From Escherichia coli (GTDB taxonomy: Bacteria > Pseudomonadota > Gammaproteobacteria > Enterobacterales > Enterobacteriaceae): DNA of 64,000 nucleotides. The stretch is from the NCBI RefSeq assembly GCF_044324785.1, contig NZ_CP172127.1; one strand, 5' to 3'. Shown piece after piece: positions 4,526 through 44,172 of the stretch (position 1 is its first letter; every line of letters begins with the position of its first letter). The notes under the pieces were generated by a model that was not told the origin of the DNA, did no database searches, and worked only from the letters and a program-made list of their open reading frames with translations. The position numbers and the translations under genes are program-made.

Positions 4526-4825
4526 AAAAATTCCTTAATACTGATAACTTGGCGCACTATACACACGTTCCTGAAGAAAGCTATAGTTTTTTGATGGGGT
4601 TGAAGATGGCTGGATGTCTAAAATAAACATTGCTTCATATGTTCAACTATGCGTTAATGATTGCGTCGGTTTGAAGAACAGACGATATACGAAGTAGTTT
4701 ACTAAAGCAGTTCTCATTTCAGGTGTTATTCACTTATTCCTTCTTTGAGTCTCTCCAATTAAGTACGAAGTCGTTTCTGTTATGCAAACCATTTATGCCG
4801 AAAGGCTCAAGTTAAGGAATGTAGA

Positions 4826-5041
4826 ATGTCAAATAAAATGACTGGTTTAGTAAAATGGTTTAACGCTGATAAAGGTTTCGGCTTTATTTCTCCTGTTGAT
4901 GGTAGTAAAGATGTGTTTGTGCATTTTTCTGCGATTCAGAATGATAATTATCGAACCTTATTTGAAGGTCAAAAGGTTACCTTCTCTATAGAGAGTGGTG
5001 CTAAAGGTCCTGCAGCAGCAAATGTCATCATTACTGATTAA
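4826..5041 (+). CDS. cspB: Cold-shock protein CspA family
   Basis: 71-aa [26 protein letters not shown]...; RNP1/RNP2 motifs; long AT-rich 5' leader. Confidence 0.95.
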
Positions 5042-5322
5042 AATTCATCGCTCGTCTGTATACGATAACGAAGAAGGCTGATGCCTGAGTAGAGATACGG
5101 ACAGAGTAGTGAATATTGGATCTCTTTAATAAAAAGTAAGGAGGTCCAATACATGAAACAATGGCTAGCATATTTGGCAAAATCTTAATCAGGAAAAGTA
5201 TGCTAACCATTGTGGTGAAGTGCAGGTTTGCTGCATGAATAGTTTTACAGCAGAAGCTAACTGCTGGCATGGCAAAACAAAGTGCGTAAGTGGATGACTC
5301 CCACAAAAAGCACCACAATCTC

Positions 5323-7350: not shown

Positions 7351-7713
7351 GGTAATATTAAATCGGAACATTTACATCGCGGAATGTAAAATTTAAATAA
7401 AAAGGACTCTTCCATGAGCCAAAATTCCTGAAATCTTAAGGGTAAGATAAAAGGTCTTAATCAGAATGACACGTTATTATTAATAAATAAAGCTATTCTT
7501 TCATTGCTGTGTTTTTCTTTACAAAAGTAATCCTTGCTATGGGTGGTTAATCATGCGTTAATGGTGTTCTGGTTTGTTACAAATTTATCTGAAGCAGTCA
7601 TTGTTATAATTTTATTATTTGTACCTCTTGAGATTTCCTTGTTGGTTTTTCTCTCTGATATTTTTTTTCGGACCATTCTGCCCAAGGGCTAATTTCTTCA
7701 AAAGGTAATAATT

Positions 7714-7926
7714 ATGTCTAACAAAATGACTGGTTTAGTGAAATGGTTTAACCCTGAAAAAGGTTTTGGTTTCATCACGCCGAAAGATGGCAGCAAAGAT
7801 GTGTTTGTCCATTTCTCAGCAATTCAGAGCAACGATTTCAAAACATTAACTGAGAATCAGGAAGTTGAATTTGGTATTGAGAACGGACCTAAAGGTCCTG
7901 CCGCTGTTCATGTAGTGGCGCTTTGA
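7714..7926 (+). CDS. cspI: Cold-shock protein CspA family
   Basis: 70-aa [26 protein letters not shown]...; long 5' leader. Confidence 0.95.
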
Positions 7927-8014
7927 GGTAGACAATATTACAAACCATATTCACTTTAGATGCCCGTGTTGTCATGGTTCCCAGTATAGAACATCATCTT
8001 TTGATGTTTCTGAC

Positions 8015-9626: not shown

Positions 9627-9789
9627 GAGGTTGTCCCGTATTCAGTGTCGCTGATTTGTATTGTCTGAAGTTGTTTTTACGTTAAGTTGATGCAGATCAA
9701 TTAATACGATATCTGCGTCATAATTGATTATTTGACGTGGTTTGATGGCGTAGATGCACGTTGTGACATGCAGATGATAATTATTATCA

Positions 9790-10014
9790 TTTTGCGGGTC
9801 CTTTCCGGCGATCCGACAGGTTACGGGGCGGCGACCTCGCGGGTTTTCGCTATTTATGAAAATTTTCCGGTTTAAGGCATTTCCGTTCTTCTTCGTCGTA
9901 ACTTAATGTTTTTATTTAAAATACCCCCTGAAAAGAAAGGAAACAACAGGTGCTGAAAACGAGCTTTTGGGCCTCTGTCGTTTCCTTTCTCTGTTTTTGG
10001 CCGTGGAATGAACA
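9790..10014 (+). other. cos site (cosQ-cosN-cosB) of lambda type; cosN 12-nt cohesive end GGGCGGCGACCT at 9827-9838
   Basis: Sequence ...GATCCGACAGGTTACG|GGGCGGCGACCTCGCGGGTTTTCGCTATTTATGAAAATTTTCCGG matches my recollection of the lambda right-end/left-end junction; lies immediately upstream of Nu1. Confidence 0.8.
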
Positions 10015-10534
10015 ATGGAAGTCAACAAAAAGCAGCTGGCTGACATTTTCGGTGCGAGTATCCGTACCATTCAGAACTGGCAGGAACAGGGAATGCCCGT
10101 TCTGCGAGGCGGTGGCAAGGGTAATGAGGTGCTTTATGACTCTGCCGCCGTTATAAGATGGTATGCCGAAAGGGATGCTGAAATTGAGAACGAAAAGCTG
10201 CGCCGGGAAGTTGAAGAACTGCGGCAGGCCAGCGAGACAGATCTCCAGCCAGGGACTATTGAGTACGAACGCCATCGACTTACGCGTGCGCAGGCCGACG
10301 CACAGGAGCTGAAAAATGCCAGAGACTCCGCTGAAGTGGTGGAAACCGCATTCTGTACTTTCGTGCTGTCGCGGATCGCAGGTGAAATTGCCAGTATTCT
10401 CGACGGGATCCCCCTGTCGGTGCAGCGGCGTTTTCCGGAACTGGAAAACCGACATGTTGATTTCCTGAAACGGGATATCATCAAAGCCATGAACAAAGCA
10501 GCCGCGCTGGATGAACTGATACCGGGGTTGCTGA

Positions 10535-10560
<26 letters not shown>
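10015..10560 (+). CDS. nu1: Terminase small subunit (lambda Nu1-like)
   Basis: 181 aa MEVNKKQLADIFGASIRTIQNWQEQGMPVLRGGGKGNEVLYD...; winged-HTH N-terminus. Confidence 0.95.
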
Positions 10561-14241
<3,681 letters not shown>

Positions 14242-18775: not shown

Positions 18776-19516
18776 ATGCCAACACCAAATCCTCTGGCAC
18801 CGGTGAAAGGGGCCGGGACCACCCTGTGGGTTTATAACGGGAGCGGCGACCCTTATGCAAACCCGCTTTCAGACAATGACTGGTCGCGTCTGGCAAAGGT
18901 TAAAGACCTGACGCCCGGCGAACTGACCGCTGAGTCCTATGACGACAGTTATCTCGATGATGAAGATGCGGACTGGACCGCGACCGGACAGGGGCAGAAA
19001 TCCGCCGGAGATACCAGCTTCACGCTGGCGTGGATGCCCGGAGAGCAGGGGCAGCAGGCGCTGCTGGCGTGGTTTAATGAAGGTGATACCCGTGCCTATA
19101 AAATCCGCTTCCCGAACGGCACGGTCGATGTGTTCCGCGGCTGGGTCAGCAGTATCGGTAAGGCGGTGACGGCGAAGGAAGTGATCACCCGCACGGTGAA
19201 AGTCACCAATGTGGGCCGTCCGTCGATGGCAGAAGATCACAGCACGGTCACAGCGGCAACCGGCATGACCGTGACGCCTGCCAGCACCTCGGTGGTGAAA
19301 GGGCAGAGCACCACGCTGACCGTGGCATTCCAGCCGGAAGGCGCAACCGACAAGAGCTTCCGTGCGGTGTCAGCGGATAAAACAAAAGCCACCGTGTCGG
19401 TCAGTGGTATGACCATCACCGTGAAAGGTGTTGCTGCAGGCAAGGTCAACATTCCGGTCGTATCCGGTAATGGTGAACTTGCTGCGGTTGCAGAAATCAA
19501 CGTCACCGCCAGTTAA
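18776..19516 (+). CDS. V: Major tail tube protein gpV (C-terminal Ig-like domain)
   Basis: ORF 18746-19516; start at [18 protein letters not shown] (246 aa). Confidence 0.9.
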
Positions 19517-19531: not shown

Positions 19532-19954
19532 ATGTTCCTGAAAACCGAATCATTTGAACATAACGGTGTGACCGTCACGCTTTCTGAACTGTCAGCCCTG
19601 CAGCGTATTGAGCATCTCGCCCTGATGAAACGGCAGGCAGAACAGGCGGAGTCAGACAGCAACCGGAAGTTTACTGTGGAAGACGCCATCAGAACCGGTG
19701 CTTGTGTGGTGGCGATGTCCCTGTGGCATAACCATCCGCAGAAGACGCAGATGCCTTCCATGAATGAAGCCGTTAAACAGATTGAGCAGGAAGTGCTTAC
19801 CACCTGGCCTACAGAGGCAATTTCTCATGCTGAAAACGTGGTGTACCGGCTGTCCGGTATGTATGAGTTTGTGGTGAATGATGCCCCTGAACAGGCAGAG
19901 GATGCCGGGCCTGCAGAGCCTGTTTCTGCGGGAAAGTGTTCGACGGTGAGCTGA
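19532..19954 (+). CDS. G: Tail assembly chaperone gpG
   Basis: 140 aa MFLKTESFEHNGVTVTLSELSALQRIEHL... Confidence 0.9.
   Translation: MFLKTESFEHNGVTVTLSELSALQRIEHLALMKRQAEQAESDSNRKFTVEDAIRTGACVVAMSLWHNHPQKTQMPSMNEAVKQIEQEVLTTWPTEAISHAENVVYRLSGMYEFVVNDAPEQAEDAGPAEPVSAGKCSTVS
19930..19936 (+). promoter_or_regulatory. Programmed -1 ribosomal frameshift slippery heptamer GGGAAAG (G to G-T fusion)
   Basis: G GGA AAG at the 3' end of G; the T ORF opens in the -1 frame exactly here. Confidence 0.65.
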
Positions 19955-20370
19955 GTTTTGCCCTGAAACTGGCGCGCGAGATGGGGCGACCCGACTGGCG
20001 TGCCATGCTTGCCGGGATGTCATCCACGGAGTATGCCGACTGGCACCGCTTTTACAGTACCCATTATTTTCATGATGTTCTGCTGGATATGCACTTTTCC
20101 GGGCTGACGTACACCGTGCTCAGCCTGTTTTTCAGCGATCCGGATATGCATCCGCTGGATTTCAGTCTGCTGAACCGGCGCGAGGCTGACGAAGAGCCTG
20201 AAGATGATGTGCTGATGCAGAAAGCGGCAGGGCTTGCCGGAGGCGTTCGTTTTGGCCCGGACGGGAATGAAGTTATCCCCGCTTCCCCGGATGTGGCGGA
20301 CATGACGGAGGATGACGTAATGCTGATGACAGTATCAGAAGGGATCGCAGGAGGAGTCCGGTATGGCTGA
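19936..20370 (+). CDS. T: gpT portion of the gpG-T frameshift fusion chaperone
   Basis: 144-aa -1 frame ORF beginning at slippery site (no independent RBS expected). Confidence 0.85.
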   Translation: MFDGELSFALKLAREMGRPDWRAMLAGMSSTEYADWHRFYSTHYFHDVLLDMHFSGLTYTVLSLFFSDPDMHPLDFSLLNRREADEEPEDDVLMQKAAGLAGGVRFGPDGNEVIPASPDVADMTEDDVMLMTVSEGIAGGVRYG

Positions 20371-22942: not shown

Positions 22943-23268
22943 AGACCTTCCGCTGGAAAGTGAAACCCGGTATGGATGTGGCTTCGGCCCCTTCCGTCAG
23001 GAAAGTGCGCTTTGGTGATGGCTATTCCCAGCGAGCGCCTGCCGGGCTGAATGCCGACCTGAAAACGTACAGCGTGACGCTTTCTGTTCCCCGTTGGGAG
23101 GCCACGGCGCTGGAGTCGTTTCTGGCTGAGCACGGGGGCTGGAAAGCCTTTCTGTGGACGCCGCCTTATGAGTGGCGGCAGATAAAGGTGACCTGCGCAA
23201 AATGGTCGTCGCGGGTCAGTATGCTGCGTGTTGAGTTCAGCGCAGAGTTTGAACAGGTGGTGAACTGA
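22939..23268 (+). CDS. M: Tail tip protein gpM
   Basis: 109 aa MKTFRWKVKPGMDVASAPS... Confidence 0.9.
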   Translation: MKTFRWKVKPGMDVASAPSVRKVRFGDGYSQRAPAGLNADLKTYSVTLSVPRWEATALESFLAEHGGWKAFLWTPPYEWRQIKVTCAKWSSRVSMLRVEFSAEFEQVVN

Positions 23269-23966
23269 TGCAGGATATCCGGCAGGAAACACTGAATGAA
23301 TGCACCCGTGCGGAGCAGTCGGCCAGCGTGGTGCTCTGGGAAATCGACCTGACAGAGGTCGGTGGAGAACGTTATTTTTTCTGTAATGAGCAGAACGAAA
23401 AAGGTGAGCCGGTCACCTGGCAGGGGCGACAGTATCAGCCGTATCCCATTCAGGGGAGTGGTTTTGAACTGAATGGCAAAGGCACCAGTACGCGCCCCAC
23501 ACTGACGGTTTCTAACCTGTACGGTATGGTCACCGGGATGGCGGAAGATCTGCAGAGTCTGGTCGGTGGAACGGTGGTCCGGCGTAAGGTTTACGCCCGT
23601 TTTCTGGATGCGGTGAACTTCGTCAACGGAAACAGTGGCGCCGATCCGGAGCAGGAGGTGATCAGCCGCTGGCGCATTGAGCAGTGCAGCGAACTGAGCG
23701 CGGTGAGTGCCTCTTTTGTACTGTCCACGCCGACGGAAACGGATGGCGCTGTTTTTCCGGGACGTATCATGCTGGCCAACACCTGCACCTGGACCTATCG
23801 CGGTGACGAGTGCGGTTATAGCGGTCCGGCTGTCGCGGATGAATATGACCAGCCAACGTCCGATATCACGAAGGATAAATGCAGCAAATGCCTGAGCGGT
23901 TGTAAGTTCCGCAATAACGTCGGCAACTTTGGCGGCTTCCTTTCCATTAACAAACTTTCGCAGTAA
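23268..23966 (+). CDS. L: Tail tip protein gpL (C-terminal Cys cluster)
   Basis: 232 aa; C-terminal CxxC...C...C cluster (CTWTYRGDECGY...CSKCLSGC). Confidence 0.9.
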   Translation: MQDIRQETLNECTRAEQSASVVLWEIDLTEVGGERYFFCNEQNEKGEPVTWQGRQYQPYPIQGSGFELNGKGTSTRPTLTVSNLYGMVTGMAEDLQSLVGGTVVRRKVYARFLDAVNFVNGNSGADPEQEVISRWRIEQCSELSAVSASFVLSTPTETDGAVFPGRIMLANTCTWTYRGDECGYSGPAVADEYDQPTSDITKDKCSKCLSGCKFRNNVGNFGGFLSINKLSQ

Positions 23967-25344: not shown

Positions 25345-28300
25345 ATGGGTAAAGGAAGCAGTAAGGGGCATACCCCGCGCGAAGCGAAGGACAACCTGAA
25401 GTCCACGCAGTTGCTGAGTGTGATTGATGCCATCAGTGAAGGGCCGATTGAAGGTCCGGTGGATGGATTAAAAAGCGTGCTGCTGAACAGTACGCCGGTG
25501 CTGGACAGTGATGGGAATACCAACATCGCCGGTGTCACGGTGGTGTTCCGGGCTGGTGAGCAGGAGCAGACTCCGCCGGAGGGATTTGAATCCTCCGGCT
25601 CCGAGACGGTGTTGGGTACGGAAGTGAAATACGACACGCCGATCACCCGCGCCATCACGTCGGCAAACATCGACCGACTGCGCTTTACCTTCGGTGTGCA
25701 GGCACTGGTGGAAACCACCTCAAAGGGGGACCGGAATCCGTCGGAAGTTCGCCTGCTGGTTCAGATACAGCGTAATGGTGGCTGGGTGACGGAAAAAGAC
25801 ATCACCATTAAGGGCAAAACCACCTCGCAGTATCTGGCCTCGGTGGTGGTGGATAACCTGCCGCCGCGCCCGTTTAATATCCGGATGCGCAGAATGACGC
25901 CGGACAGCACCACAGACCAGCTGCAGAACAAAACGCTCTGGTCGTCATACACCGAAATCATCGATGTGAAACAGTGCTACCCGAACACGGCACTGGTCGG
26001 CGTGCAGGTGGACTCGGAACAGTTCGGCAGCCAGCAGGTGAGCCGTAATTATCATCTTCGCGGGCGCATTCTGCAGGTGCCGTCGAACTATAACCCGCAG
26101 ACGCGGCAATACAGCGGTATCTGGGACGGAACGTTTAAGCCAGCATACAGCAACAACATGGCCTGGTGTCTGTGGGATATGCTGACCCATCCGCGCTACG
26201 GCATGGGGAAGCGTCTCGGTGCGGCGGATGTGGACAAATGGGCGCTGTATGTCATCGGCCAGAATTGCGACCAGTCGGTGCCGGATGGCTTTGGTGGCAC
26301 GGAGCCGCGCATCACCTGTAATGCCTGGCTGACCACACAGCGCAAGGCGTGGGATGTTCTCAGTGATTTCTGCTCGGCGATGCGCTGTATGCCGGTATGG
26401 AACGGGCAGACGCTGACGTTCGTGCAGGACCGACCGTCGGATAAGGTGTGGACCTATAACTGCAGTAATGTGGTGATGCCGGATGATGGCGCGCCGTTCC
26501 GCTACAGCTTCAGTGCCCTGAAGGACCGTCATAATGCCGTTGAGGTGAACTGGATTGACCCGGATAACGGCTGGGAGACGGCGACAGAGCTTGTTGAAGA
26601 TACGCAGGCCATTCTCCGTTACGGTCGTAACGTCACGAAGATGGATGCCTTTGGCTGTACCAGCCGGGGGCAGGCGCACCGCGCCGGGCTGTGGTTGATT
26701 AAAACGGAACTACTGGAAACGCAGACCGTGGACTTCAGCGTGGGGGCGGAAGGGCTTCGCCATGTGCCGGGCGATGTCATTGAAATCTGCGATGATGACT
26801 ATGCGGGGATCAGCACCGGCGGGCGCGTGCTGGCGGTGAACAGCCAGACCCGGACGCTGACGCTCGACCGTGAAATCACGCTGCCATCCTCCGGTACCAC
26901 GCTGATAAGCCTGGTTGACGGAAGTGGCAATCCGGTCAGCGTGGAGGTCCAGTCCGTCACCGACGGCGTGAAGGTAAAAGTGAGCCGTGTTCCTGACGGC
27001 GTTGCCGGATACAGCGTATGGGGGCTGAAGCTGCCGACGCTGCGCCAGCGCCTGTTCCGCTGCGTGAGTATCCGTGAGAACGACGACGGCACGTATGCCA
27101 TCACCGCCGTGCAGCATGTACCGGAAAAAGAAGCTATCGTGGATAACGGGGCGCACTTTGACGGCGACCAGAGCGGCACGGTGAATGGTGTCACGCCGCC
27201 AGCAGTGCAGCACCTGACTGCCGAAGTCACCGCAGACAGCGGGGAGTATCAGGTACTGGCCCGCTGGGACACGCCGAAGGTGGTGAAGGGCGTGAGTTTC
27301 ATGCTTCGCCTGACCGTAACAGCGGATGACGGCAGTGAGCGGCTGGTCAGCACGGCCCGGACGACGGAAACCACTTACCGCTTCACACAACTGGCTCTGG
27401 GGAACTACAGGCTGACAGTCCGGGCAGTAAATGCGTGGGGGCAGCAGGGCGATCCGGCGTCGGTATCGTTCCGGATTGCCGCACCGGCAGCGCCGTCGCG
27501 GATTGAGCTGACGCCGGGCTATTTTCAGATAACCGCCACGCCGCATCTTGCGGTTTATGATCCGACGGTACAGTTTGAGTTCTGGTTCTCGGAAAAGCGG
27601 ATTGCGGATATCAGGCAGGTTGAAACCAGCGCGCGTTATCTTGGTACGGCACTGTACTGGATAGCCGCCAGTATCAATATCAAACCGGGCCATGATTATT
27701 ATTTTTACGTTCGCAGTGTGAACACCGTTGGCAAATCGGCATTCGTGGAGGCTGTCGGTCAGCCGAGTGATGATGCATCAGGCTATCTGGATTTTTTCAA
27801 AGGCGAGATAGGGAAAACCCATCTGGCTCAGGAGCTGTGGACGCAGATTGATAACGGTCAGCTTGCGCCTGACCTGACTGAAATCAGGACGTCCATAACG
27901 GATGTCAGCAATGAAATAACACAGACCGTCAATAAGAAACTGGAAGACCAGAGTGCAGCGATCCAGCAGATACAGAAGGTTCAGGTTGATACAAATAATA
28001 ACCTGAACAGCATGTGGGCAGTGAAGCTGCAGCAGATGCAGGACGGACGCCTTTATATTGCGGGTATCGGTGCCGGTATTGAGAACACCCCTGACGGCAT
28101 GCAGAGTCAGGTGCTGCTGGCGGCGGACAGGATTGCGATGATTAATCCTGCAAATGGCAACACAAAACCGATGTTTGTTGGTCAGGGTGATCAGATATTC
28201 ATGAATGACGTGTTCCTGAAACGCCTGACGGCTCCCACCATTACCAGCGGTGGAAATCCGCCGGCATTTTCCCTGACACCGGACGGAAAGCTGACCGCTA

Positions 28301-28842
28301 AAAATGCGGATATCAGTGGCAGTGTGAATGCGAACGCCGGGACGCTCAACAATGTCACGGTAAATGAAAACTGTACGATTAAGGGCATGCTGGAGGCGAC
28401 TCAGGTCAGAGGTGACTTCGTTAAAGCTGTATCCAAATCATTCCCGAAACAGGCTGGTACGTGGGGTAATACGGAAACACCAAACGGGACGGTTACAGTC
28501 ACCATCAGCGATGATCATAACTTTGACCGTCAAATCATTATTCCGCCCATTATCTTTAACGGAATAGCGTATAGCGATCCGGGAAGTGGTAATAACCCGG
28601 GAGGTACAAGATACACGGGTTATGGTTTTGAAGTTCGCAAAAACGGCGTATTAATCGCATCCAGAGAAACTAAAGGGGCCATTCCCGGTAGTTACAGTGC
28701 AGTTATTGATATGCCGAGTGGCAGGGGAAGCGTCACTCTGGAGTTTAAGATTTTCCAGAAAGGCAATCAGGGGGCAGGCAATATCACCGACTGTACGGTG
28801 ATTGTGACCAAAAAAGCCGCTTCCGGCATCAGTATTCGTTGA
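25345..28842 (+). CDS. J: Central tail fiber / host specificity protein gpJ
   Basis: 1165-aa ORF; N-terminal and central regions lambda J-like; C-terminal region appears divergent. Confidence 0.95.
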
Positions 28843-28912: not shown

Positions 28913-29512
28913 ATGCGTAAAGTTTGTGCAGCAATTTTGTCCGCAGCCATTTGTCTGGCCGTATCCGGTGCGCCTGCATGGGCGTCTGAACATCAGTCCA
29001 CGCTGAGCGCGGGGTATCTTCATGCCTCGACGAACGTCCCCGGCAGTGATGATCTGAACGGGATTAACGTGAAATACCGTTATGAGTTTACGGACACACT
29101 GGGGCTGGTGACGTCATTCAGCTATGCAGGAGACAAGAATCGCCAGCTGACCCGTTACAGCGATACCCGCTGGCATGAAGATTCCGTTCGTAACCGCTGG
29201 TTCAGCGTAATGGCGGGGCCGTCTGTGCGCGTGAATGAATGGTTCAGCGCGTATGCGATGGCGGGTGTGGCTTACAGCCGTGTGTCGACTTTCTCCGGGG
29301 ATTATCTTCGCGTAACTGACAACAAGGGGAAAAAGCACGATGTGCTGACCGGAAGTGATGACGGTCGCCACAGCAACACGTCTCTGGCGTGGGGGGCTGG
29401 CGTGCAGTTTAACCCGACCGAATCCGTGGCCATTGATATTGCTTATGAAGGCTCCGGCAGTGGTGACTGGCGCACTGACGGTTTCATCGTGGGTGTCGGT
29501 TATAAATTCTGA
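28913..29512 (+). CDS. lom: Lom/Ail/PagC-family outer-membrane beta-barrel protein
   Basis: 199 aa with signal peptide; conserved C-terminus ...DIAYEGSGSGDWRTDGFIVGVGYKF. Confidence 0.9.
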   Translation: MRKVCAAILSAAICLAVSGAPAWASEHQSTLSAGYLHASTNVPGSDDLNGINVKYRYEFTDTLGLVTSFSYAGDKNRQLTRYSDTRWHEDSVRNRWFSVMAGPSVRVNEWFSAYAMAGVAYSRVSTFSGDYLRVTDNKGKKHDVLTGSDDGRHSNTSLAWGAGVQFNPTESVAIDIAYEGSGSGDWRTDGFIVGVGYKF

Positions 29513-29566: not shown

Positions 29567-29576
29567 TGGGGTGAAT

Positions 29577-32405
29577 ATGGCAGTAAAGATTTCAGGTGTA
29601 CTGAAAGACGGCACAGGAAAACCGGTACAGAACTGCACAATCCAGCTGAAAGCAAAACGTAACAGCACCACGGTGGTGGTAAACACGCTGGCCTCAGAAA
29701 ATCCGGATGAAGCCGGGCGTTACAGCATGGACGTTGAGTACGGGCAGTACAGCGTTATTCTGTTGGTGGAGGGATTCCCGCCGTCACATGCCGGGACCAT
29801 CACCGTGTATGAAGATTCCCGACCCGGTACGCTGAATGATTTTCTCGGTGCCATGACGGAGGATGATGCCCGTCCTGAGGCACTGCGCCGTTTTGAACTG
29901 ATGGTGGAAGAGGTGGCGCGTAACGCGTCCGCGGTGGCACAGAACACGGCAGCCGCGAAGAAGTCAGCCAGCGATGCCGGCACATCAGCACGTGAGGCGG
30001 CAACCCATGCGACTGATGCTGCAGGCTCAGCACGCGCAGCCAGCACGTCAGCCGGACAGGCCGCGTCGTCGGCTCAGTCAGCATCTTCCAGCGCAGGAAC
30101 GGCATCAACAAAGGCCAGTGAAGCATCGAAAAGTGCTGCTGCTGCAGAGTCCTCAAAAAGCGCGGCAGCTACCAGTGCCGCTGCGGCGAAAACGTCAGAA
30201 ACGAATGCGGCAGCGTCACAACAATCAGCAGCCACTTCTGCATCCGCCGCGACCACGAAGGCGTCAGAAGCTGCCACCTCAGCCCGGGATGCGGCGGCCT
30301 CAAAAGAGGCGGCAAAATCATCAGAAACGAGCGCAGCCTCGAGCGCCAGTAGTGCAGCCTCCTCGGCAACAGCGGCAGGAAATTCCGCGAAGGCGGCAAA
30401 AACGTCCGAGACGAACGCTAAGTCTTCTGAGACGGCAGCAGCACAGAGTGCCTCCGCAGCAGCAGACTCAAAAACAGCGGCTGCCTCATCTGCCAGCGCC
30501 GCGTCAACAAATGCCGGGCAGGCCTCAGCCAGTGCCACCGCCGCCGGAAAATCGGCAGAAAGTGCTGCATCGTCCGCTTCAACAGCCACAACGAAGGCTG
30601 GCGAAGCCGCTGTACAGGCCAGCGCAGCAGCGAGGTCTGCTTCCGCAGCGAAGACATCCGAGACGAACGCGAAAGCGTCGGAAACCAGCGCAGAATCCTC
30701 AAAAACGGCTGCCGCATCGTCCGCCAGTTCGGCGGCGTCATCGGCATCATCTGCGTCTGCTTCAAAAGATGAGGCGACCAGACAAGCGTCCGCAGCGAAG
30801 GGCAGCGCCACGACAGCATCCACGAAGGCGACAGAGGCAGCTGGCAGTGCGACGGCGGCAGCACAGAGCAAAAGTACGGCGGAATCCGCGGCAACGCGCG
30901 CCGAGACAGCGGCAAAACGGGCAGAGGATATTGCATCCGCCGTGGCGCTTGAGGATGCGAGCACGACGAAAAAGGGGATAGTACAGCTCAGCAGTGCGAC
31001 CAACAGCACTTCCGAGTCACAGGCGGCAACGCCAAAAGCCGTTAAGGCCGCGTATGACCTGGCTAACGGGAAATACACCGCACAGGACGCTACGACAGCA
31101 CAAAAAGGAATTGTCCAGCTCAGTAGTGCAACCAACAGCACATCTGAAACGCTTGCTGCGACACCGAAAGCAGTGAAAGCAGCTAATGACAATGCGAATG
31201 GTCGGGTACCTTCTGCCCGTAAGGTGAATGGTAAGGCGCTTTCAGCGGATATAACACTGACGCCGAAAGATATTGGTACGCTTAACTCAACAACAATGTC
31301 ATTCAGCGGTGGTACTGGTTGGTTCAAATTAGCAACGGTAACCATGCCACAGGCGAGTTCTGTTGTTTCAATTACGTTGATTGGTGGCGCTGGATTTAAC
31401 GTGGGGTCACCTCAACAGGCAGGTATATCTGAACTTGTTTTACGTGCAGGTAATGGTAATCCGAAGGGGATTACTGGTGCTTTATGGCAGCGCACATCGA
31501 CAGGGTTTACAAATTTTGCCTGGGTCAATACATCTGGTGATACTTACGATATTTACGTTGCAATCGGAAATTATGCGACTGGTGTAAATATTCAATGGGA
31601 TTATACCAGTAATGCCAGCGTGACGATTCATACGTCACCAGCATATTCTGCTAATAAGCCGGAAGGGTTAACGGACGGTACAGTTTATTCACTCTATACG
31701 CCATCAGAGCAGTTTTATCCGCCTGGCGCACCAATCCCGTGGCCATCAGATACCGTTCCGTCTGGCTATGCCCTGATGCAGGGGCAGACTTTTGACAAAT
31801 CTGCATACCCGAAACTTGCAGCCGCTTATCCGTCAGGCGTGATCCCTGATATGCGTGGCTGGACGATTAAGGGCAAACCTGCCAGTGGTCGGGCCGTATT
31901 GTCTCAGGAACAGGACGGCATTAAATCGCATACCCACAGCGCCAGCGCATCCAGTACGGATTTGGGGACGAAAACCACATCGTCGTTTGATTACGGCACT
32001 AAATCCACGAATAACACTGGTGCGCATACCCATAGTTTAAGTGGCAGCACGAATGCAGCTGGTAATCACAGCCATAGAGATGGCCGTCGATTTAACCCCA
32101 GTGTTTTTAAAGATACTTATCAATATGGTTATACAAGCTCAGGTCAAAATACCTGGGGTGTACAAGGCTCAGTAGGTATGTCTACGGGGTGGTTAGCGAA
32201 TACCAGTACAGATGGTAATCATAGCCATTCACTGTCCGGCACAGCAGCATCTGCAGGTGCACACGCGCATACTGTCGGTATTGGTGCTCATACGCACTCC
32301 GTTGCGATTGGTTCACATGGACACACCATCACCGTTAACGCTGCTGGTAACGCGGAAAACACCGTCAAAAACATCGCATTTAACTATATTGTGAGGCTTG
32401 CATAA
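29577..32405 (+). CDS. stf: Side tail fiber protein Stf
   Basis: ORF 29571-32405; start at [12 protein letters not shown]; Ala/Ser-rich repeat block, duplicated phage tail-fiber repeat ([15 protein letters not shown]...[10 protein letters not shown]), His-rich HxH C-terminal motifs. Confidence 0.9.
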
Positions 32406-32980
32406 TGGCATTCAGAATGAGTGAACAACCACGGACCATAAAAATTTATAATCTGCTGGCCGGAACTAATGAATTTATTGGTGAAGGTGACGCATATATT
32501 CCGCCTCATACAGGTCTGCCAGCAAACAGTACCGATATTGCACCACCAGATATTCCTGCTGGCTTTGTGGCTGTTTTCAACAGTGATAAGGCATCGTGGC
32601 ATCTCGTTGAAGACCATCGGGGTAAAACGGTTTATGACGTAGCGTCAGGGGACGCGTTATTTATTTCTGAACTCGGTCCGTTACCGGAAAATGTTACCTG
32701 GTTATCGCCGGAAGGGGAGTTTCAGAAGTGGAACGGCACAGCCTGGGTGAAAGATGCAGAAGCAGAAAAACTGTTCCGGATCCGAGAGGCGGAAGAAACA
32801 AAAAACAGCCTGATGCAGGTAGCCAGTGAGCATATTGCGCCACTTCAGGATGCTGTAGATCTGGAAATCGCAACGGAGGAAGAAACCTCATTGCTGGAAG
32901 CCTGGAAAAAGTATCGGGTGTTGCTGAACCGTGTTGATACGTCAACTGCACAGGATATTGAATGGCCAGCACTGCCGTAG
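32405..32980 (+). CDS. tfa: Tail fiber assembly protein Tfa
   Basis: 191 aa [24 protein letters not shown]...; ATG overlaps stf stop (TAATG). Confidence 0.9.
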
Positions 32981-43858: not shown

Positions 43859-43975
43859 GCTCCGTTTAACATTCATTGAGAAAACTGATGCTACTGTGTC
43901 AACGATCCGTTATCAGTGCAGGAAAATGCCTGTTAGCGTAAAAGCAAAACACAAATCTATCCATGCAAGCATTCA

Positions 43976-44001
43976 CCGCCGGTTTACTGGCGGTTTTTTT
44001 T
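43976..44001 (+). terminator. Intrinsic terminator (plus strand) in dgcZ-mgtS intergenic region
   Basis: Hairpin CCGCCGG-TTTA-CTGGCGG followed by T8. Confidence 0.55.
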
Positions 44002-44007
44002 CGCCGT

Positions 44008-44049
44008 CATAAAAATCAGGCCCCTTGTACACAACTGTAACAAGGGGCC
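44008..44049 (-). terminator. Intrinsic terminator for mgtS (minus strand)
   Basis: 10-bp stem GGCCCCTTGT/ACAAGGGGCC followed on the minus strand by TGATTTTTAT. Confidence 0.55.
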
Positions 44050-44076
44050 GGTTAGGTGAGGGATTATCTCCGTTCA

Positions 44077-44172
44077 TTAGTCATCCCATTTGTGGCTGAA
44101 ATACGCGGCCAGAAAACCAGAAAATAAAATTATTCCCAGTACGGCCATAAAAACATTCATATTACCCAGCAT
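44077..44172 (-). CDS. mgtS: MgtS (YneM) 31-aa inner-membrane small protein
   Basis: Hand-translated MLGNMNVFMAVLGIILFSGFLAAYFSHKWDD; SD GGAGG upstream; below track cutoff. Confidence 0.8.
   Translation of the reverse strand: MLGNMNVFMAVLGIILFSGFLAAYFSHKWDD

Follow-up and report, generated by a model that had tools for sequence, protein, structure and literature searches.

Phase, identity and conservation point to a lambda-type G/T programmed -1 frameshift site in a Qin-locus prophage of Escherichia coli

The GGGAAAG heptamer near the end of gene G in a Qin-locus lambdoid prophage of E. coli is almost certainly a programmed -1 ribosomal frameshift site of the lambda G/T type. The prophage lies in a 64-kb stretch of DNA, here called the window. 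The assignment draws on direct observation of the sequence and its phase, the two reading frames, their identity with lambda, the protein families to which the products belong, the gene context and the evolutionary conservation of the site.

Read from the window sequence, the heptamer occupies positions 19930-19936 on the + strand, and its first base is codon position 3 in the G frame, so that the zero frame reads GC[G GGA AAG] TGT TCG ACG GTG AGC TGA (heptamer in brackets). The phase is thus G_GGA_AAG and follows the X_XXY_YYZ pattern, in which the P-site and A-site tRNAs can both re-pair in the -1 frame (tandem -1 slippage). The G stop codon, TGA 19952-19954, is 15 nt away, and no other in-phase slippery heptamer lies within the G/T overlap. 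An earlier note on this DNA had located GGGAAAG at the end of G, and the heptamer is indeed found there, in the slippage phase of G. The same note had assigned T to the -1 frame, which is correct, and had the T frame open exactly at the heptamer, which is not: the last upstream stop of this frame is TGA 19888-19890, so that the open stretch begins at 19891, 39 nt ahead of the heptamer. After a slip, reading resumes with GTG 19936-19938, by coincidence also the first start-like codon and the one that ORF callers choose. The T frame ends at TGA 20368-20370. Translation across the heptamer with a -1 slip bypasses the G stop and gives a 279-aa G-T fusion, in which ...PVSAGK from the G frame is followed directly by VFDGELSFALK from the T frame. 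The coordinates of all features are collected in Table 1.

Table 1. Features of the G/T region and its neighbours, in window coordinates.
Feature	Position	Strand	Basis
V, major tail tube protein, 246 aa from ATG 18776	18776..19516	+	profile match; lambda match
Shine-Dalgarno-like GGAGAG, 6 nt before the G start codon	19520..19525	+	sequence reading
G, tail assembly chaperone, 140 aa, zero-frame product gpG	19532..19954	+	ORF; PF06894 Phage_TAC_2; 136/140 aa identical to lambda G
G-T fusion coding region, join(19532..19936,19936..20370), 279 aa	19532..20370	+	translation; same join in phage 434 record OL657226
Overlap in which the G and -1 (T) frames are both open, 64 nt	19891..19954	+	TGA 19888-19890
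Slippery heptamer G_GGA_AAG	19930..19936	+	phase; identity with the proven site of lambda; conservation
T-frame segment, 144 codons + stop, probably read only as the C-terminal part of gpGT	19936..20370	+	PF06223; lambda T identity
Candidate stem-loop	19944..20014	+	consensus folding, pair counts
H, tape measure protein, 859 aa	20363..22942	+	ORF; profile match; lambda match

From the start of G to the end of T, the window is identical to lambda (NC_001416; G 9711-10133, T 10115-10549) at 822/839 nt (98%), with 17 differences and no indels. The heptamer, the 17 nt upstream of it and the 40 nt downstream match lambda exactly. The T protein is identical to lambda T over 144/144 aa, the four nucleotide differences all being synonymous in the T frame, and the G protein is identical in 136/140 aa (97%), with F58C, L59V, N116D and T121A resulting from 13 nucleotide changes. 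The synonymous changes in T and the few replacements in G amount to a purifying-selection pattern in both frames. G matches Pfam family PF06894 (Phage_TAC_2, lambda tail assembly chaperone G) with E 2.8e-59 over 125/126 profile positions, and T matches PF06223 (Phage_tail_T, minor tail protein T) with E 2.1e-14. Many lambdoid phages match the region at 97.5-99.2% identity.

G and T form an overlapping ORF pair between V (tube) and H (tape measure), with Z, U and V upstream. The ATG of H overlaps the end of T (ATGGCTGA), and AGGAGGAG precedes H at 20349-20356. In the record of phage 434 the homologous pair is annotated as a joined 'GT ... frameshift product', and the N15 and LLS records mark a slippery sequence at the homologous position. 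Direct identity, the Pfam families, the position between V and H and the literature on lambda thus uphold the earlier view that the site is as in the G-T chaperone of lambda.

Within G, four substitutions cluster in 8 nt (19699-19706) and give Cys58-Val59, where lambda, 434 and mEp332 have Phe-Leu. Cys-Val at G 58-59 occurs in none of the lambda-like IMG/VR loci with a readable motif, 29 of which have Phe-Leu and 10 Phe-Val. The H protein has 859 aa, 6 more than its 853-aa lambda counterpart, to which it is 89% identical; should the length of the tail follow that of H, it would be marginally longer here.

Conservation was assessed in 291 IMG/VR loci that encode relatives of G and fall into five subfamilies. 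Among 78 lambda-like and Stx2-like loci with a complete G, whose G identity falls as low as 68%, 77 have GGGAAAG in this phase and at this 15-nt distance from the G stop; the single exception has a truncated G. Positions 1 and 4 of the heptamer are the last bases of an Ala and a Gly codon of G; in T they lie before the slip and are not translated, and they should therefore drift freely. Both are nevertheless invariant in 54 distinct G genes, whereas only 9 of 40 comparable four-fold sites are. The Lys codon of the heptamer is AAG in all 54 of these genes and never AAA. Across the five subfamilies, 274 of 284 loci carry a heptamer ending in A_AAG exactly 15 nt before the G stop, in one of three forms: GGGAAAG (lambda-like, Stx2-like), AAAAAAG (VT1-Sakai-like) or GGAAAAG (N15-like, LLS-like). 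From one subfamily to the next the first bases vary, but the location of the heptamer and its A_AAG core stay fixed, which is the signature of selection for slippage and not for the peptide. The slip site is thus conserved among homologues beyond the coding requirement.

In the N15-like and LLS-like loci (L091-L221) the homologous heptamer, again 15 nt ahead of the G stop, is G_GAA_AAG. A kinetic study describes G_GAA_AAG as 'less slippery' than G_GGA_AAG (PMC6924986), so the GT:G ratio of these phages may differ from that of lambda-like ones or may lean more on context.

As a bare string, GGGAAAG is not enriched: the 64-kb window holds 10 copies, and shuffled sequences give an expectation of 7.5 +/- 2.8. 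This count is uninformative, and we therefore counted heptamers with regard to phase. Twelve in-phase X_XXY_YYZ heptamers occur among the 6,123 late-gene codons from nu1 to J. The three motifs with high efficiency in E. coli, A_AAA_AAG, G_GGA_AAG and C_CCA_AAG, were taken as a high-efficiency set, and the G/T heptamer is the sole in-phase member of this set in the 6,123 codons. At one such motif per 6,123 codons, the chance of landing in the 20-codon overlap is about 0.3%. The phase, place and conservation of the heptamer, unlike the bare string, exceed chance. The 11 other in-phase heptamers (at 11026, 11584, 12911, 18094, 18142, 18859, 23375, 24070, 25722, 27792 and 28596) fall in the late genes A, B, Z, V, L, K and J, examples being G_GGA_AAA in A and U_UUU_UUC in B, L and J; none of them is among the most efficient motifs in E. 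coli.

How the site would work can be drawn from lambda, in which the G/GT slip site is likewise GGGAAAG (PMC3296357 Table 1; PMC7618472; PMC5009743). There, ~96% of translation stays in the zero frame and ~4% shifts (PMC3296357), corresponding to about one ribosome in 25-30, and G_GGA_AAG ranks among the most shift-prone heptamers in E. coli (PMC4066793; PMC6924986). By analogy, frameshifting at a lambda-like rate is probable in this prophage. Most ribosomes would stay in the zero frame through G and terminate at TGA 19952-19954, releasing gpG (140 aa), while a few percent would slip with GGA (Gly) in the P site and AAG (Lys) in the A site. The tRNA-Gly would move from GGA to GGG and the tRNA-Lys from AAG to AAA, one base back; base 19936 would then be re-read as the first base of GTG, and the T frame would be followed to 20370, yielding gpGT (279 aa).

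The two products presumably act as in lambda, where gpG and gpGT attach through their G sequence to the tape measure protein, gpGT attaches through its T part to the tube protein, and the virion contains neither of them (PMC5009743). A gpG:gpGT ratio of ~30:1 is crucial for lambda tail assembly, and both proteins are needed (PMC5009743). Thiolation of U34 in tRNA-Lys(UUU) tunes this ratio, and a disturbed ratio lowers the phage yield (PMC3296357; PMC7618472). If the homology extends to function, many copies of gpG and a few of gpGT would coat the tape measure protein H, the T domain would recruit the tube protein V, the tail would polymerise to the correct length, and gpG and gpGT would be absent from the virion. 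Long-tailed dsDNA phages widely share the G-T frameshift (PMC5009743). No tRNA genes were found in the 64-kb window, so that no prophage-encoded tRNA would take part in the slip. A scan for promoters and terminators around G-T returned nothing beyond chance. The lambda G-T -1 frameshift was reportedly established by Levin, Hendrix and Casjens in 1993, and Xu, Hendrix and Duda are said to have described its conservation across long-tailed phages in 2004, with further work on lambda gpG and gpGT reportedly appearing in 2013 and 2014. The mechanism is thus already known, and this case adds nothing new to it biologically.

The window is collinear, at 99.5% DNA identity, with the Qin-locus lambdoid prophage of E. 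coli IAI1, the closest RefSeq relative. The collinear run starts at ydfV/relBE, takes in the lysis genes, the late operon and pinQ, and reaches ydfJ and chromosomal genes. The prophage part of the window (1-33700) contains ydfV, relBE, hokD, a Q-like ydfT, cspB/F/I, lysis genes, a complete lambda-type late operon, pinQ and a truncated ydfJ; the early region, with immunity, replication and integration functions, lies further left, outside the window. Of 5,426 complete E. coli genomes, 2,456 carry 80% or more of the 24-kb late region. For each of the lambda late proteins Nu1 to J the window contains one full-length match, with identities to lambda of 89-100% for Z, U, V, G, T, H, M, L, K and I and of 82% for J. 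The reading frames of J, a lom-like gene, a side tail fibre gene of 944 codons and tfa run without interruption. With the 19 late genes from nu1 to J as well as stf and tfa at full length and uninterrupted, the tail module is complete at the reading-frame level. The intact slip site had been taken in the earlier note as support for a functional tail assembly pathway, a claim that stands as far as the reading frames go, Z to J being full length. The Qin remnant of K-12 presumably lacks head and tail genes, all of which are present in this prophage. An intact site together with Z-U-V-G-T-H-M-L-K-I-J makes up a full lambda-type tail assembly module, unlike the K-12 remnant.

Several further differences were noted along the prophage and its flank. 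L (23268-23966) is intact, with 232 codons and 99% identity to lambda L, whereas L of IAI1 is annotated as a frameshifted pseudogene; the early region of IAI1 contains pseudogenes and an IS element, and prophages at the Qin locus are often defective. J (25345-28842) shows 82% identity to lambda J with 45 gap positions, and the lom-like gene (28913-29512) shows 46% identity to lambda Lom; their sequence divergence suggests that receptor specificity or accessory cargo is different here. The side tail fibre gene (29571-32405) is a single ORF of 944 codons, which the lambda reference has in two pieces, orf-401 and orf-314; inside it, at ~30971-31141, ~130 bp differ from IAI1, apparently in repeat number. 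At ~42080 the window lacks ~475 bp that are present in IAI1 (most of ydeJ), reflecting either a deletion here or an insertion there. Rfam matches at gathering score were obtained at 4665-5057, 7568-7953, 32748-32946 and 43870-44083; by type they comprise two cspA-type thermoregulator leaders (prophage cold-shock genes), an IS009 RNA (tfa region) and the Hfq-binding sRNA STnc560 (chromosomal flank).

T could instead be an independent gene initiated at GTG 19936, with the heptamer incidental, and ORF callers, RefSeq/PGAP and the lambda reference record do list T from GTG as a separate CDS. We regard independent initiation as highly improbable, because GTG 19936 lacks a spaced Shine-Dalgarno sequence, the sole purine-rich stretch being the heptamer itself at 0-2 nt, and because N15-like, LLS-like and VT1-like relatives have GCC or GCA in its place, neither of them a start codon, yet still conserve the T frame and the slip site. 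The invariance of the heptamer's synonymous positions also argues against an independent T, as does the literature, in which the products are gpG and gpGT only (PMC5009743; PMC3296357). Slippage of RNA polymerase on the A run would be another route to the fusion, one to which we give next to no credence. The homopolymer run at this site comprises only 3 A (or 3 G), and RNA polymerase slippage needs runs far longer than 3. Some phage and type III secretion genes do use transcriptional slippage (PMC5009743), but nothing specific to this site favours it; the review that reports those cases sets ribosomal frameshifting in lambda GT apart from them (PMC5009743), and the change of gpG:gpGT upon tRNA-Lys U34 thiolation points to the ribosome (PMC3296357). 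With ribosomal frameshifting at the heptamer as the preferred reading, the correct product to annotate is the joined G-T protein made via ribosomal slippage, not a stand-alone T gene starting at GTG. RefSeq lists T as a stand-alone CDS from GTG in IAI1 (locus L004, 23937-24371) and in lambda (locus L001, 716-1150), whereas the phage 434 and LLS records give the join, a systematic annotation inconsistency.

A further alternative bears on whether the site is used: it may be an intact relic of a cryptic prophage, idle in this host and preserved by recent acquisition instead of ongoing selection. Such a history would suit the Qin-locus setting with its host-domesticated genes (relBE, hokD, cspB/F/I), the frameshifted L and early-region pseudogenes of the nearest relative, IAI1, and the location of the early region beyond the window. 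It sits poorly with late genes that are full length throughout, L included, and with purifying selection in both frames (only synonymous differences from lambda in T, 4 aa from 13 nt in G). On this evidence we think a relic improbable, though clearly less so than independent initiation of T or transcriptional slippage. Moreover, it concerns the use of the element in this host and not its identity as a programmed frameshift site.

The site also bears on whether the lambda-family signal has a downstream RNA stimulator. Consensus folding of six divergent sequences predicted a candidate stem-loop that starts 7 nt past the heptamer and consists of an outer helix (19944-19951/20007-20014) and an inner hairpin (19970-19985/19990-20005). 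In a gap-free alignment of the downstream regions of 72 distinct sequences, 94.4% of cells are compatible with the pairing, compared with 22-42% when the partners are slid, and the helix arms stay pairable in all five subfamilies. At pair 19945/20013, 29 rows have G-C and 43 have A-U, with no intermediates; this switch tracks the subfamily split and may be a single event. Measures of covariation that are robust to relatedness gave the same values as shuffles in these sequences, with 2 pairs changed on both sides against 2.0 and 11 pair types against 11.3, and for this reason we do not accept the stem-loop as demonstrated. Folding of the single sequence gave no compelling structure (z = -1.69 for the downstream 100 nt, z = -0.01 with the heptamer centred). 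Synonymous diversity is modestly lower in the stem arms (0.23 vs 0.38), a marginal difference (p=0.048), and several invariant stem-arm codons are explained by the overlap with the AGC-TGA of G. Compared with synonymous recodings, the native sequence has the better fold in each of the five subfamilies, albeit weakly (z -1.0 to -2.5); only LLS, with the strongest downstream folding (z = -2.5), is individually significant. The stretch also encodes the highly conserved N-terminus of T (LKLAREMGRPDWRAMLAGM). Upstream, an SD-like element 6-17 nt before the heptamer is absent, as GCAGAGCCTGTTTCTGC contains no GGAG, GAGG or AGGA core.

Levin et al. reportedly found only a modest effect of downstream sequence and no obvious structure, which we do not use as evidence. 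Sharma et al. screened the gpG cluster and found a hairpin with a 7-nt spacer in 51% of members (PMC4066793), with a hairpin energy no better than the local average (ddG 0.020 +/- 0.095; PMC4066793 Table S8), an SD score of 'N' and no significant suppression at synonymous sites (PMC4066793). In their E. coli reporter, GGGAAAG shifted at 0.277% without a stimulator, at 3.8% with the moderate IS911 stimulators and at 43% with the IS3 pseudoknot (PMC4066793 supplement). The gap between 0.277% for the heptamer alone and the natural ~4% in lambda hints at some added context. A conserved mRNA stem-loop 7 nt downstream may boost the G-T shift in the lambda family as a functional stimulator, but we consider this doubtful. 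The signal is not separable from conservation of the T N-terminal peptide and shared ancestry, and the support it lends is suggestive. If the stem-loop does act in this way, the lambda-family site would not be a bare heptamer, and the natural rate of ~4% would be explained.

Among known systems, lambda G/T is the closest match, sharing the heptamer, its phase, the 15-nt distance to the G stop, the lengths of both genes (423 and 435 nt), V upstream and an H that overlaps the stop of T downstream. It differs from the present case in 17 nt and 4 G residues, and here the module resides in a Qin-site prophage and not in lambda. Stx-converting phages, VT1-Sakai, N15 (genes 14/15) and LLS/HK97-like phages have the same architecture and the same offset of the slip site from the G stop; their G proteins are only 40-70% identical, and AAAAAAG in VT1-like and GGAAAAG in N15/LLS-like phages take the place of GGGAAAG. 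Outside the phage tail genes, E. coli dnaX and IS911/IS3 resemble the site in their tandem slippage ending on A_AAG, which E. coli reads with its single tRNA-Lys(UUU). Those systems have proven stimulators (a downstream hairpin, a pseudoknot or an SD-like sequence upstream) and far higher rates, whereas the G/T site has no SD-like element and its downstream structure is only a candidate.
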